A stretch of 64,000 nucleotides of DNA, taken from NCBI GenBank assembly GCA_964644965.1, contig CAZXYN010000001.1:139012-203011 (forward strand). The letters run 5' to 3'. The notes beneath the pieces are model-generated. The model had not been told where the DNA came from. It did no database searches and saw only the letters and a list, made by a program, of their open reading frames with translations. Within the stretch, counting starts at the first letter, position 1; every line of letters starts with the position of its first letter. This document shows, one piece after another, positions 14,898-17,981 of this stretch. Made by a program: the position numbers and the translations under genes. Source of the stretch: an uncultured Candidatus Saccharibacteria bacterium. GTDB taxonomy: Bacteria > Patescibacteriota > Saccharimonadia > Saccharimonadales > JACDBH01.

Positions 14898-15527
14898 ATG
14901 TACATGAATGTGTACCACTATACTTCATTTGGAGACTGGAGACAGGTCAAGACTGGTTCCTGGATGTCAGGCGACATACCAGGTCTAGCAAACAGTCGTC
15001 GTGTATGCAAGAACCTGCATAGTGAAGAAGGCGCTACAGACGGCGCCGTATTTGGTTTGCTCGAGCCCGAGCCCAAAGCTTGGACAGAGAACACCGACTT
15101 CCCACTCGCGTGGCAATATCTAGTAAGACACGTCGGTGGTCTATTGGTTAGTTACGAACCTACTGATGAAATCGTAGAAAAATCTCATATCATCGATTGG
15201 TCTCATATGGAGCGTTTTCATGGTGGACATAAAGATGATCTGGGTAAGCCTGAAGACCCGAATGATTCTAGAATAGAAGCAGAACGTTCGTATTGGGGTA
15301 GTCGTGTGCCGCTTAGCGATTATATAGATAACCCAAATGTTGTAGATTCATTTGCACTGCCAGAAGTTATCTCACAGTGCATCATACCTTATGATTTGAT
15401 ACAAATAGAAAAGGTGCAGCCAATGGTACCAAGCACAAGCCCTTTTCAGAATGACAGCATACGTCTTGGAATTACCGCTAACCCAGAGTTAGAGTTCCTG
15501 TCTTCGCTTATCCCAGAATCCGTCTAG
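14898..15527 (+). CDS. Hypothetical protein (island gene 2), probably on a leaderless mRNA
   Basis: 209 aa ORF; a TGTTAGAAT extended -10 sits 10 nt upstream of the ATG and there is no SD; unknown function. Confidence 0.5.
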   Translation: MYMNVYHYTSFGDWRQVKTGSWMSGDIPGLANSRRVCKNLHSEEGATDGAVFGLLEPEPKAWTENTDFPLAWQYLVRHVGGLLVSYEPTDEIVEKSHIIDWSHMERFHGGHKDDLGKPEDPNDSRIEAERSYWGSRVPLSDYIDNPNVVDSFALPEVISQCIIPYDLIQIEKVQPMVPSTSPFQNDSIRLGITANPELEFLSSLIPESV

Positions 15528-15535
15528 TGTAGAAT

Positions 15536-15551
15536 AGGTTTATATAAACCT
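15536..15551. promoter_or_regulatory. Perfect 16-bp palindrome AGGTTTATATAAACCT just downstream of a TGTAGAAT -10; operator-like site
   Basis: Read directly from the sequence; the same core recurs at 15839-15862 and 17948-17971. Confidence 0.55.
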
Positions 15552-15591
15552 GGTAAGATGAATGCAAAACAAATGGGTGGTTGGAGGTTTT

Positions 15592-15831
15592 ATGCCGGAG
15601 ACTTATAGCAAATCACCTATGGATGAGGCTTTTGAGGCTGCAGAGCTTTGCCAGCGAGCAGAGCAGTGCAGAATGGCTCGCATTGGTTTAGCATTATTTT
15701 CCATGCAGATTAGCCAGCGAGTTATTGCTGGGCTAGAAAGTGGCCCACATACTCCATACGAATACCCAGAAGAACCATGCCCAAACCAGAATCAACTCTT
15801 CTGCCAAGACCGCCTCGAACAATCAGGGTAA
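15592..15831 (+). CDS. Hypothetical small protein (island gene 3)
   Basis: 79 aa from MPETYSKS with a GGAGG SD 5 nt upstream; the track ORF 15562 start is less likely; Cys-containing, unknown function. Confidence 0.45.
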   Translation: MPETYSKSPMDEAFEAAELCQRAEQCRMARIGLALFSMQISQRVIAGLESGPHTPYEYPEEPCPNQNQLFCQDRLEQSG

Positions 15832-15838
15832 TCTTGTA

Positions 15839-15862
15839 GTTTATATAAATGTTTATATAAAT
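15839..15862. promoter_or_regulatory. Two tandem GTTTATATAAAT palindromic boxes upstream of the restriction-endonuclease gene
   Basis: GTTTATATAAATGTTTATATAAAT is followed by a TATAGT -10-like box and a GGAGACGT SD. Confidence 0.55.
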
Positions 15863-15898
15863 TTGTTAAGATTATAGTAACAATTTAGTTGGAGACGT

Positions 15899-16588
15899 AT
15901 GGCATACTTTAATTTTGTATCTGATAGTGACCTAGTAGCGGCTGTTAAGACTGTACTAGATGCCGCAACAAAGGCAAGTGACAAGGCAGAAAAGGAATTC
16001 GAGAAGAATGTCCTCGATCCATTTGCCGCACTATTTTCAATAACATTCAATCAAATTGACCTGAACGACTGGAACGAGCTTGAAGCAGAGAGACAAGCTC
16101 AAAAATCCATCCAAAATACTATCGGGGAGTTTCATCAACATTTACTAGGTAGTTTTAATGGGTGGGATGATCCTGGTAAGGGCGGTAGCGTAGATTTAGT
16201 AAATAGAGAAAAGAAGATTATTGCTGAAGTTAAAAACAAGCATAATACCATGAATTCTAGTGCAGCAAACGATACCTACGGCAAGCTAGCCAACCATCTT
16301 AAATTTGATAGAAAAGGCTACACCGCATACTTAGTCCAAGTTGTTCCTAAGAAAGCAGAAAACTATAACAAACCTTGGTCGCCTAATCAAAGAACTTTAG
16401 CGATTAGGGATGATATACGTGTCATTGACGGAGAGTCGTTTTATGATCTTGCATCCGGAGAAGAAGATACACTAAAAAGAATATTTGATGTACTTCCAAA
16501 AATTATCTTAGATATTACTGGCAAAGAACCGGTGTCAGAAAAGACAATCCAGGGGTGCAAGGAATTATTCAAAAGAGTTTATAAGTAA
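15899..16588 (+). CDS. Putative Type II restriction endonuclease (PD-(D/E)xK fold)
   Basis: 229 aa directly upstream of the C5-methyltransferase; GGSVDLV...IIAEVKNK matches the PD-(D/E)xK catalytic pattern D...E-V-K; family not assignable by eye. Confidence 0.5.
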   Translation: MAYFNFVSDSDLVAAVKTVLDAATKASDKAEKEFEKNVLDPFAALFSITFNQIDLNDWNELEAERQAQKSIQNTIGEFHQHLLGSFNGWDDPGKGGSVDLVNREKKIIAEVKNKHNTMNSSAANDTYGKLANHLKFDRKGYTAYLVQVVPKKAENYNKPWSPNQRTLAIRDDIRVIDGESFYDLASGEEDTLKRIFDVLPKIILDITGKEPVSEKTIQGCKELFKRVYK

Positions 16589-16626
16589 CCCTTGCATTAT
16601 GCAATGGTTACTGTAATACTCTAACC

Positions 16627-17922
16627 ATGAGCAATTTATTAGGGGTGTCCGAAGCAGCAGAAAGAATTGGGGTTTCAGTCGACACTATTCGACGCTGGGA
16701 AAAGAAAGGCCTGATTAAGTCGCGTCGTGATGGACATAATTACCGGGTATTTAGCCTGGATGAAATTAAGAGATTGCATAGCAAGATTAACGGCAACAGT
16801 ACGTTTAAAAGCAGGTTTAAGGTACTAAAAAAGCAGAAGGGTACTAACTATACTGCTATTGATTTATTCGCTGGTGCGGGCGGCACAGCACTTGGCTTGG
16901 AAAACGCAGGTTTCAGGCATGCCCTATTAAACGAATTTGATAAACATGCAGCAGCAACACTTAAACTCAATCGTCCTGACTGGAATATCAACGACGGTGA
17001 TATTCATAATGTTGATTTTAGACAATTCAGAGGCAAAGTTGATTTAATTGAGGGTGGCTTCCCGTGTCAAGCGTTTAGCTATGCTGGAAAGCGTTTAGGT
17101 TTCGACGATACAAGGGGAACATTGTTTCATGAGTTTGCCCGAGCAGTGAAGGAAGTTCAGCCAAAAATAGCTATTGGTGAAAACGTTCGTGGACTACTAA
17201 CCCACGATGAAGGGCGAACATTAAAGACTATGGTCAAAGTTCTCCAAGACCTAGGATATAACGTAGCGTATAAAATTCTGCGATCACAATATCTTGATGT
17301 TCCTCAGAAACGAGAACGTTTGATAATAATGGGTGTACGAAAAGACATAGCAGACATGGTGGTCTTTCCTCGCGAGAAAGATTACACCATTAGTTTGCGA
17401 GAGGCCATTGGTGATAATCCTTTGAGCGATGGTCAAAAATACTCAGAATCAAAACACAAAATAATGAAGCGCGTACCAGCAGGCGGTTACTGGAGGGATC
17501 TACCTGACGAATTACAGCGCGAGTACATGAAAGCAAGCTATTTTCACACTGGTGGCAAAACAGGGATGGCACGACGTCTCTCGTGGGATGAGCCTAGCCT
17601 CACACTGACATGTAACCCTGCGCAGAAGCAGACAGAGCGCTGCCATCCAGTCGAAACAAGACCTCTGAACGTTCGTGAGTATGCAAGGGTTCAAACGTTT
17701 CCTGATACTTGGAATTTCTCAGGCTCAGTATCTCAACAATACAAGCAGATAGGCAATGCTGTACCAGTCAATCTTGGATACTATATGGGACGATCAGCGA
17801 TTCATGTTCTCGACGGTACAATATCTGATGATTTTGAGTATGTTTCCCCTATTGAAGAAACAGAGCTAAAGAATATTCCTGATATTACTTTGGAGCCTGT
17901 GACGCTGCCGCTATTTAGTTAA
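16627..17922 (+). CDS. DNA (cytosine-5)-methyltransferase with an N-terminal MerR-like HTH domain
   Basis: Motif I DLFAGAGGTALGL, motif IV GGFPCQAFS, motif VI ENVRGL, motif X QIGNAVPV; N-terminal GVSEAAERIGVSVDTIRRWEKKGLI is an HTH as in SsoII-type autoregulatory methyltransferases. Confidence 0.9.
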   Translation: MSNLLGVSEAAERIGVSVDTIRRWEKKGLIKSRRDGHNYRVFSLDEIKRLHSKINGNSTFKSRFKVLKKQKGTNYTAIDLFAGAGGTALGLENAGFRHALLNEFDKHAAATLKLNRPDWNINDGDIHNVDFRQFRGKVDLIEGGFPCQAFSYAGKRLGFDDTRGTLFHEFARAVKEVQPKIAIGENVRGLLTHDEGRTLKTMVKVLQDLGYNVAYKILRSQYLDVPQKRERLIIMGVRKDIADMVVFPREKDYTISLREAIGDNPLSDGQKYSESKHKIMKRVPAGGYWRDLPDELQREYMKASYFHTGGKTGMARRLSWDEPSLTLTCNPAQKQTERCHPVETRPLNVREYARVQTFPDTWNFSGSVSQQYKQIGNAVPVNLGYYMGRSAIHVLDGTISDDFEYVSPIEETELKNIPDITLEPVTLPLFS

Positions 17923-17947
17923 GCTGCTTTTGCAGGTGCTAGAATGG

Positions 17948-17971
17948 GTTTATATAAACGTTTATATAAAC
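17948..17971. promoter_or_regulatory. Two tandem GTTTATATAAAC palindromes between a TGCTAGAAT extended -10 and the SD of the AbrB-like gene
   Basis: GTGCTAGAATGGGTTTATATAAACGTTTATATAAACTGGAGGGTGTATG. Confidence 0.55.
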
Positions 17972-17981
17972 TGGAGGGTGT

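Follow-up and report, generated by a model that had tools for sequence, protein, structure and literature searches.

A 12-bp palindrome at three promoters of a Saccharibacteria restriction-modification island, a candidate operator of a 60-residue AbrB-like protein

The window analysed here is a 64-kb stretch (64,000 nucleotides of contig CAZXYN010000001.1) from an uncultured Candidatus Saccharibacteria bacterium. It carries a restriction-modification (R-M) cassette, composed of an endonuclease gene, R, and a methyltransferase gene, M, next to the gene of a small AbrB-like protein. The palindrome GTTTATATAAA(C/T) occurs in the window in five copies, all confined to three promoter regions, and this study concerns the protein that could bind it. 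The gene order is rpsI and its terminator, orf193, orf209, orf79, R, M, the AbrB-like gene, the gene of a beta-helix protein, two small open reading frames (ORFs) and trpS. Judged from its sequence, the cassette is an Eco47II-family type II R-M system, in which R is followed by a C5 methylase; the specificity of Eco47II is GGNCC. The genes and predicted sites that bear on the argument are the following:

15592..15831, + strand: orf79, a 79-aa protein with four conserved cysteines (C20, C26, C63, C71), GGAGG 4 nt before its ATG
15899..16588, + strand: R, Eco47II-family type II restriction endonuclease (Pfam RE_Eco47II PF09553, E=1.1e-57; PADLOC REase_II; 237 homologues)
16627..17922, + strand: M, C5 cytosine DNA methyltransferase (DNA_methylase PF00145, E=7e-83; NCBIfam dcm) with an N-terminal MerR-type helix-turn-helix (HTH; residues ~4-51)
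17982..18164, + strand: AbrB/MazE/SpoVT-domain protein, 60 aa (PF04014, 31.8 bits versus a cutoff of 24.7, E=1.4e-7; family hidden Markov model (HMM), 8.9e-28)
15536..15551, unstranded: predicted operator site 1, single copy with core GTTTATATAAAC at 15538-15549, part of repeat D8
15839..15862, unstranded: predicted operator site 2, two copies of GTTTATATAAAT (15839-15850 and 15851-15862) with a 12-bp period, repeats D5, D8 and I1
17948..17971, unstranded: predicted operator site 3, two abutting perfect copies of GTTTATATAAAC (17948-17959 and 17960-17971), repeats I18 and I19

The coordinates of the three sites, proposed in an initial annotation of the window, were all recovered by a motif scan of these 64 kb of genome. 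The 12-bp palindromes, described there as perfect, are indeed so at sites 1 and 3, the core of site 1 even sitting within a perfect 16-bp palindrome, AGGTTTATATAAACCT (15536-15551), but both copies at site 2 end in T and deviate from perfect symmetry. Six matches with at most one mismatch were observed versus 0.19 expected from dinucleotide-preserving shuffles (n=100, maximum 2), and none of the 100 shuffles reached six; with up to two mismatches, 11 matches were observed versus 3.2 expected. Furthermore, the exact GTTTATATAAAY is missing in 154 of the 157 loci retrieved for comparison (about 1 Mb, designated by L numbers below). It is present in L001 and L002, which correspond to the window's own locus, and as a single copy in L014; the window's own locus recurs in two public read-set assemblies. 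As far as the window and these loci show, the motif is not a common component of AT-rich spacers, and chance does not explain its copies. The palindrome looks like a real operator, and this assignment is supported. As for a reading of the dyads as an RNA element or terminator, it was rejected: Rfam gave no match within 14000-20000, no terminator is predicted at the sites, and a loopless 12-bp AT-rich dyad makes no useful hairpin.

One of the one-mismatch copies, GTTTATAAAAAC at 47064-47075, has a broken dyad centre and lies in a divergent intergenic region, upstream of the gene of a dCTP deaminase (47156-47869); chance may account for it.

Promoters and transcription starts were read by eye from the sequence, and sigma-70 consensus rules may not hold in Saccharibacteria. 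At the AbrB-like gene, the relevant element is:

17937..17945, + strand: extended -10 TGCTAGAAT of the AbrB-like gene, read from the sequence

Site 3 is located between this -10 and the Shine-Dalgarno (SD) sequence (GGAGGG, 17973-17978), over the expected transcription start, just as the initial annotation had it. The tandem copies of site 2 precede the Eco47II-like R gene, also as annotated, and R is supported as one of the predicted targets. Site 1 does not precede R, the first gene after it being orf79, which the initial annotation did not mention. Sites 1 and 2 have in common a 22-nt module (repeat D8) made of the operator, 1 nt and TGnTAAGAT: TGGTAAGAT stands downstream of site 1 (15551-15559), and the extended -10 of R, TGTTAAGAT (15864-15872), directly adjoins site 2. 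Indeed, TGNTAAGAT occurs just twice in the window, at these two modules. Sites 1 and 3 share another layout, namely TAGAAT followed by 2 nt and the operator. A recurring TGnTAGAAT promoter, as previously proposed, is in its strict form found at two places, at site 3 (17937-17945) and before orf209 (14889-14897). At site 1, in the context GTGTAGAAT with TAGAAT at 15530-15535, the spacer base following TG is missing, and at site 2 TAGAAT is absent altogether; moreover, this hexamer shows no enrichment in intergenic DNA (6 observed versus 5.6 expected). In the R and orf79 promoters, the operators occupy the -35/spacer region against the extended -10, with no recognisable -35, and the two operator centres at R fall at about -35 and -23.

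The 60-aa AbrB-like protein is the sole member of its family in the window. PF04014 is its only Pfam match, no HTH_3 domain being detected at E<=0.1, and its matches to TIGR01439 and TIGR02609 remain below threshold; no curated family of NCBIfam or PADLOC covers it. The protein consists of the domain only, and its gene has as neighbours M and the secreted beta-helix protein, with no adjacent toxin gene in the window. With both the tail and an adjacent toxin missing, it is not a typical AbrB-type antitoxin.

Homologues of this protein were collected by a word-indexed protein search, which gave five relatives, and by a pattern scan of one genome per species, which gave 66 loci, mostly from metagenome-assembled genomes (MAGs) of Patescibacteria (Saccharibacteria, Gracilibacteria, Parcubacteria groups and others); the close relatives of the window's locus belong to Saccharibacteria MAGs. 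The start of each homologue was located and the 110 nt upstream were read. Nearly all of the 66 homologues have a dyad element directly before their own ATG, often in two to four abutting copies, and the sequence of this element varies from lineage to lineage:

L006: TGTTATATAACTAGTTATATAACA
L017: AATCATATGATT, three copies
L019: CTTACGTAAG, four copies
L027: TAATTACGTAATTAATTACGTAATTA
L036: ATCCCTAGGATTAATCCTAGGGAT
L040: ATCTACGTAGAT, two copies
L056: TGTTACGTAACA, two copies

Perfect palindromes with an arm of at least 8 bases are present within 70 nt upstream of 46% of the homologues versus 3.4% of the controls, for which 644 upstream regions of ORFs in these loci were taken; for arms of at least 12, the proportions are 26% and 0.6% (Mann-Whitney p=2e-20). 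Of the 20 tandem cases, 16 have a period of 12 bp, the same as in the window. The nearest relatives have palindromes with the same TTATATAA core, ACTTATATAAGT in L005 (74% identical protein) and two copies of GTTATATAAC, 12 bp apart, in L006 (60%), and in these two loci orf79, R and M are all absent. The operator is located directly upstream of the gene's own -10 in L040, L070, L036 and L057 and directly downstream of it in L019, L027, L052 and L054; both layouts overlap the core promoter. In about 13 of 62 loci, additional copies of the own operator stand before neighbouring genes (RhuM-like, GNAT, NUDIX, membrane protein, paralogous copies), indicating that a small local regulon is a habit of the family and that the three-site layout of the window is typical.

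The operator core also differs with residue 15 of the protein. A TACGTA operator accompanies none of the 13 homologues with Q at this position (RKLQK) and 23 of the 44 with T (RKLTK). Collectively, these data constitute strong comparative evidence that the AbrB-like protein would recognise the palindrome before its own gene. The initial annotation had left the choice between this protein and the HTH of M: the family-wide operators and the residue 15 pattern speak for the former, while the latter appears to have a separate operator of its own, described below.

Several family loci present further particularities. In L012, own operators of the ACGTATTCGAATACGT type precede a NUDIX gene and a gene resembling release factor 2 by eye (9807-9835 and 10381-10399); these copies, if they are operators, would widen the regulon past accessory genes. 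Duplications of the AbrB-like gene, spanning a few kb and including its operator and promoter, are seen in L009 (4399-6205), L070 (4745-8611), L065 (2212-3202), L019 (5942-7494) and L006 (3872-6183). These repeats look like cassette boundaries, and in L009 the copies bracket a Fic gene. A Bacteroidales MAG contig with a family member, L046, has a G/A-rich unit in four copies at 126-bp intervals (3241-3651).

The best explanation of the window's layout, and a fairly probable one, is that the palindrome is the operator of the 60-aa AbrB-like protein, which would repress itself as well as R and orf79. AbrB of B. subtilis and MazE-type antitoxins repress their own promoters. By analogy with these, an AbrB-like dimer could sit on each palindrome, with two dimers side by side on the tandem sites. 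The two perfect operators that cover the transcription start of the AbrB-like gene would lead to autorepression. At R, two imperfect operators are placed in the -35/spacer region against TGTTAAGAT, so that their occupancy would most likely exclude RNA polymerase, and the same exclusion could apply to orf79, whose single operator is placed in the same way relative to TGGTAAGAT. The regulator, by limiting its own concentration, would thereby set the expression level of R and orf79, and the terminal T of the R operators could mean weaker occupancy than at the AbrB-like gene. M would be controlled apart, by its own MerR-type HTH on a 27-bp palindrome, following an SsoII-like logic with another class of HTH.

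Several points weigh against this explanation. Pure repression gives R no obvious delay relative to M after transfer, and the operator position at the R promoter does not by itself exclude activation. Binding itself, the sign of the regulation and the positions of promoters and starts are predictions, the promoters and starts having been placed by eye. The association of residue 15 with the operator core (Fisher p=7e-4) is confounded by phylogeny. Matches to AbrB sequences of the PDB are weak (E 0.08-0.7), with marginal matches to AbrB and C56 alone. An AlphaFold2 monomer model built from 6 sequences is poor (predicted local distance difference test, pLDDT, 61; predicted template modelling score, pTM, 0.34). 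It comprises one helix and a C-terminal hairpin, with the N-terminal 20 residues disordered; low confidence is expected for a monomer because the fold, a swapped-hairpin beta-barrel, needs a dimer, and with this model the fold assignment comes from the Pfam match only. Finally, further copies of the motif and further candidate binders may exist outside the 64 kb.

It is also conceivable, though rather unlikely, that the AbrB-like protein behaves as a classical controller (C) protein, activating R and orf79 at the missing -35 and repressing itself alone, which would delay R until enough regulator is present and so provide the timing after methylase that the initial annotation had proposed. Such dual behaviour is known in C proteins (PMC12707154). 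The geometry could suit it: at R and orf79 the operator lies where the -35 is missing, 1 nt upstream of TGnTAAGAT, while at the protein's own gene the operators are on the opposite side of the -10. Furthermore, no terminator is predicted between M and the AbrB-like gene, so they could be co-transcribed and the regulator level coupled to M, and in L096, L069, L054 and L012 a family member comes first in the R-M operon, the typical C-protein slot. However, the proximal operator at R has its centre near -23, within the spacer, and binding there normally represses. An identical upstream geometry is found at the own promoters of L040, L070, L036 and L057, where negative feedback is expected, and the closest R-M relatives are devoid of such a factor and have leaderless, constitutive-looking R promoters. 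AbrB- and MazE-type proteins are, moreover, predominantly repressors. Repression by the AbrB-like protein thus remains the reading that we prefer.

Another binder, either orf79 or an unlinked host factor, would reduce the AbrB-like gene to a mere target. The position of orf79, with site 1 before and site 2 after it, could suggest this, and just 64 kb of genome are in view. We consider it improbable: orf79 is a four-cysteine protein with four weak homologues and no DNA-binding signature, it is absent in L005 and L006, which retain TTATATAA palindromes, and the family-wide link between AbrB-like genes and palindromes, together with the covariation at residue 15, points to the AbrB-like protein. 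Equally slim is the prospect that no dedicated binder exists, the palindromes being promoter parts (-10 or UP-like) or leftovers of promoter duplication in a recently assembled island. The TATATA and TATAAA within the motif do resemble -10 hexamers, and the flanking promoter modules common to the sites (repeats D5 and D8) suggest duplication. Yet some homologues have, at the same position, equally regular tandem palindromes that contain GC and do not look like promoters (ATCCCTAGGGAT, CGTAGTGCACTACG and GGTAACGTTACC), and although the sequence varies together with the protein, the 12-bp period and dyad symmetry are maintained.

The methylase M has a distinct palindrome at its own promoter:

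16585..16611, unstranded: 27-bp palindrome GTAACCCTTGCAT-T-ATGCAATGGTTAC (GTAACCcTTGCAT-T-ATGCAAtGGTTAC) with one mismatch, overlapping the R stop codon

It spans the -35 of M (TTGCAT, 16592-16597) and the spacer, the -10 being TAATAC (16614-16619). A metagenome scan added 80 Eco47II-like loci, giving 85 R-M loci in all, of which 50 have a methylase with a MerR-type HTH. In about 45 of these 50, a TAACCnTTGCATnATGCAAnGGTTA dyad is found directly upstream of M, in most cases with an extended -10 after it, and it is kept across HTH identities of 46-74%; the conserved dyad is based on TTGCAT-N-ATGCAA. The 27-bp palindrome itself is kept in L072, L074, L075 and L076, where the R-M spacer is nearly invariant. 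It is the predicted operator of the MerR-type HTH, through which M would repress its own gene. Consequently, the earlier proposal that the 12-bp motif also controls M does not hold, no copy being present before M and this other palindrome taking its place. Nor is the HTH SsoII-like in class, as had been stated: Pfam assigns it to MerR (E=2.1e-12; MerR_1, E=1.9e-11), whereas the SsoII domain is 434-repressor-like (PMC3978073), and the likeness is limited to architecture and logic. A role of the N-terminal HTH of M as binder of GTTTATATAAAC and repressor of R, on the model of SsoII and Ecl18kI, is therefore very unlikely, to the point of being nearly negligible, although this HTH is a genuine DNA-binding domain and R-M genes are known to be regulated by fusions of an HTH with a methylase (PMC12707154, PMC3978073): it has this separate conserved operator, none of the 85 related R-M loci contains GTTTATATAAAY, and a TATATA-core palindrome accompanies the AbrB-like gene in the methylase-free loci L005 and L006.

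The closest R homologues with usable contigs (L072, L074, L075 and L076; 66-68% identity) have the order R, a 38-nt gap and a MerR-HTH methylase. They contain neither the AbrB-like gene nor orf79 nor the TATATA motif, and their R upstream regions are unrelated to that of the window; TAGAAT or TAAGAT lies 6-7 nt upstream of their ATG, which gives R a leaderless appearance. Since these relatives lack both the regulator gene and the motif, the regulator does not appear ancestral to the cassette, and the wiring of R seems lineage-specific. Promoter duplication and insertion of the cassette behind a regulated promoter are candidates for its origin. The rpsI-trpS interval of a related Saccharibacterium, L007 (5630-6130), carries a 5'-truncated AbrB remnant (residues 19-59) and no R-M genes. 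In L003, an intact AbrB-like copy precedes a glycosyltransferase gene and trpS, and the contig breaks within the operator. These two layouts indicate that the rpsI-trpS interval is a variable spot of insertion and deletion. In the window, the island (14200-18400) has 38-45% GC versus 47-51% in the flanking ribosomal-protein and trpS regions, which is consistent with horizontal acquisition. A phage origin was considered as well and rejected, the viral scan yielding one weak match.

Among the 85 R-M loci, the family HMM detects one homologue, in L096. This locus has the order AbrB-like gene, Eco47II-like R and MerR-HTH M and contains four TACGTAA repeats at 12-bp intervals, and its regulator is 39% identical to that of the window. 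Other family members stand before R-M genes of various types:

L069: AbrB, Eco57I-type methylase, R.Tsp45I
L054: AbrB, HsdR (4-nt gap), HsdM-S fusion, Abi_C
L021 and L068: AbrB, D12 methylase
L039: AbrB, M.EcoRI-like methylase
L012: AbrB, 142-aa ORF, Z1-domain protein, C5 methylase

R-M genes represent 6 of 58 immediate downstream neighbours versus 1 of 59 upstream ones, against a background of about 4-5 among 148 genes of these loci at distances above 2.5 kb (PADLOC, with the top 25 families listed). The enrichment is directional but modest. The neighbourhoods of the family are rich in defence genes in general, those of Fic, zeta toxin, RhuM and GIY-YIG proteins being also frequent, and many members adjoin ordinary genes. 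The most fitting description of the family is that of small local regulators which accessory cassettes, among them R-M systems, have often recruited.

Four modes of R-M regulation are known, namely promoter methylation, HTH-methylase fusions, antisense RNA and HTH-type C proteins (PMC12707154). The window's arrangement has in common with the C-protein systems (C.PvuII, C.AhdI and C.Esp1396I) a small regulator beside R and M and tandem dyad operators at the regulator's own promoter. The paired dyads at the own promoter are accompanied, as with C proteins, by further sites at the R promoter (two copies at the own gene, two at R and one at orf79). As in Esp1396I, where the C/R and M promoters carry three operators between them, more operator copies are present at another R-M promoter (PMC3488213, PMC2691842). 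The window resembles Esp1396I control most closely in function, layered here on what would be an SsoII-like self-regulating methylase. Nevertheless, the window protein does not belong to the C-protein family: C proteins are Xre-type HTH proteins of ~70-100 aa, whereas the window protein has an AbrB/SpoVT fold by its domain match and no HTH detected; its operators are abutting 12-bp palindromes, unrelated in sequence to known C-boxes. C proteins first activate and then, as their concentration rises, repress, which delays R. Their genes are located immediately upstream of R and are co-transcribed with it, whereas the AbrB-like gene is downstream of M and not ancestral to the cassette. The statement that it occupies the C-protein slot is thus not borne out here, although homologues do fill this slot in L096, L069 and L054. 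Furthermore, unlike C proteins, members of the family are also found beside Fic, zeta-toxin, RhuM and housekeeping genes.

With the SsoII, Ecl18kI and EcoRII methylases, M shares an N-terminal DNA-binding domain, a conserved palindrome at its own promoter and predicted autorepression (PMC12707154). It differs from them by the MerR-type domain, the N-terminal domain of SsoII having been modelled on the 434 repressor (PMC3978073), and by the collinear instead of divergent orientation of R and M. This SsoII-like layer is a second, separate regulatory element, distinct from the TATATA operator.

The AbrB/MazE antitoxins, including the 'doc_partner' family TIGR02609, resemble the window protein by the PF04014 domain, predicted autoregulation and the sub-threshold TIGR02609 match, and several homologues adjoin Fic/Doc or zeta-toxin genes. 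Unlike these antitoxins, the family proteins are 55-63 aa long and consist of the domain only, without a C-terminal toxin-binding or multimerisation tail, and no toxin stands beside the window gene. Classical AbrB binds loosely defined sites, whereas the operators of this family are strict short palindromes. By a purely positional analogy with the C.Kpn2I roadblock, the operators of the AbrB-like gene could block read-through from M, and those of R read-through from orf79.

In the library searched, no paper was found that describes AbrB-type regulators of R-M systems or the present family of the Candidate Phyla Radiation (CPR). An AbrB-fold regulator wired to a restriction gene, if confirmed, would represent a new protein class in R-M regulation, in a two-layer design where M would regulate itself through its MerR domain and another factor would govern R. 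A wider claim can be put forward tentatively: domain-only AbrB-fold controllers, distributed across the CPR, may constitute the first non-HTH class of R-M controllers, with private 12-bp operator codes partly readable from residue 15 (Q/T), which would control their own expression and act as switches of R-M, Fic, zeta-toxin and further accessory cassettes. To our knowledge, very little has been established on transcriptional regulation in Patescibacteria, and we know of few transcription factors in CPR genomes, almost none of them with a known site. In this family, the sequence alone predicts more than 60 regulator-operator pairs, with clear dyads and a candidate specificity residue. Saccharibacteria are naturally competent and genetically manipulable, so that such pairs may be testable in them (PMC10633639).

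Among the other genes of the island, orf193 and orf209 gave no family match. No Pfam, NCBIfam or PADLOC match was obtained for orf79 either, and a third word-indexed protein search with orf79 recovered orf79 alone. Four weak homologues (34-39% identity, 75-77 aa) were found among 1.8 billion representatives. A stretch of orf79 resembles a recognition helix, and the protein was considered as a degenerate Xre-type C protein; this was rejected, there being no HTH match and the homologues keeping the four cysteines and the motif CPNxxQLFCQDR, not an HTH. A possible additional site lies at the beginning of the island:

14241..14252, unstranded: possible degenerate operator ATTTATATAAGC, 2 mismatches, abutting a TATACT -10 before orf193 (tentative)

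It may be a weak fourth site before orf193, the first gene after the rpsI terminator. Finally, -10-like hexamers (TAGAAT, TAAGAT and TAATAC) are found 6-8 nt before an ATG, with no SD, at 14889-14906 and 16614-16629 of the window and likewise in L072 (~4985-5003), L075 (~85-103) and L076 (~4985-5003). With this layout, the mRNAs of orf209 and of R in the related cassettes may be leaderless, and that of M probably is.

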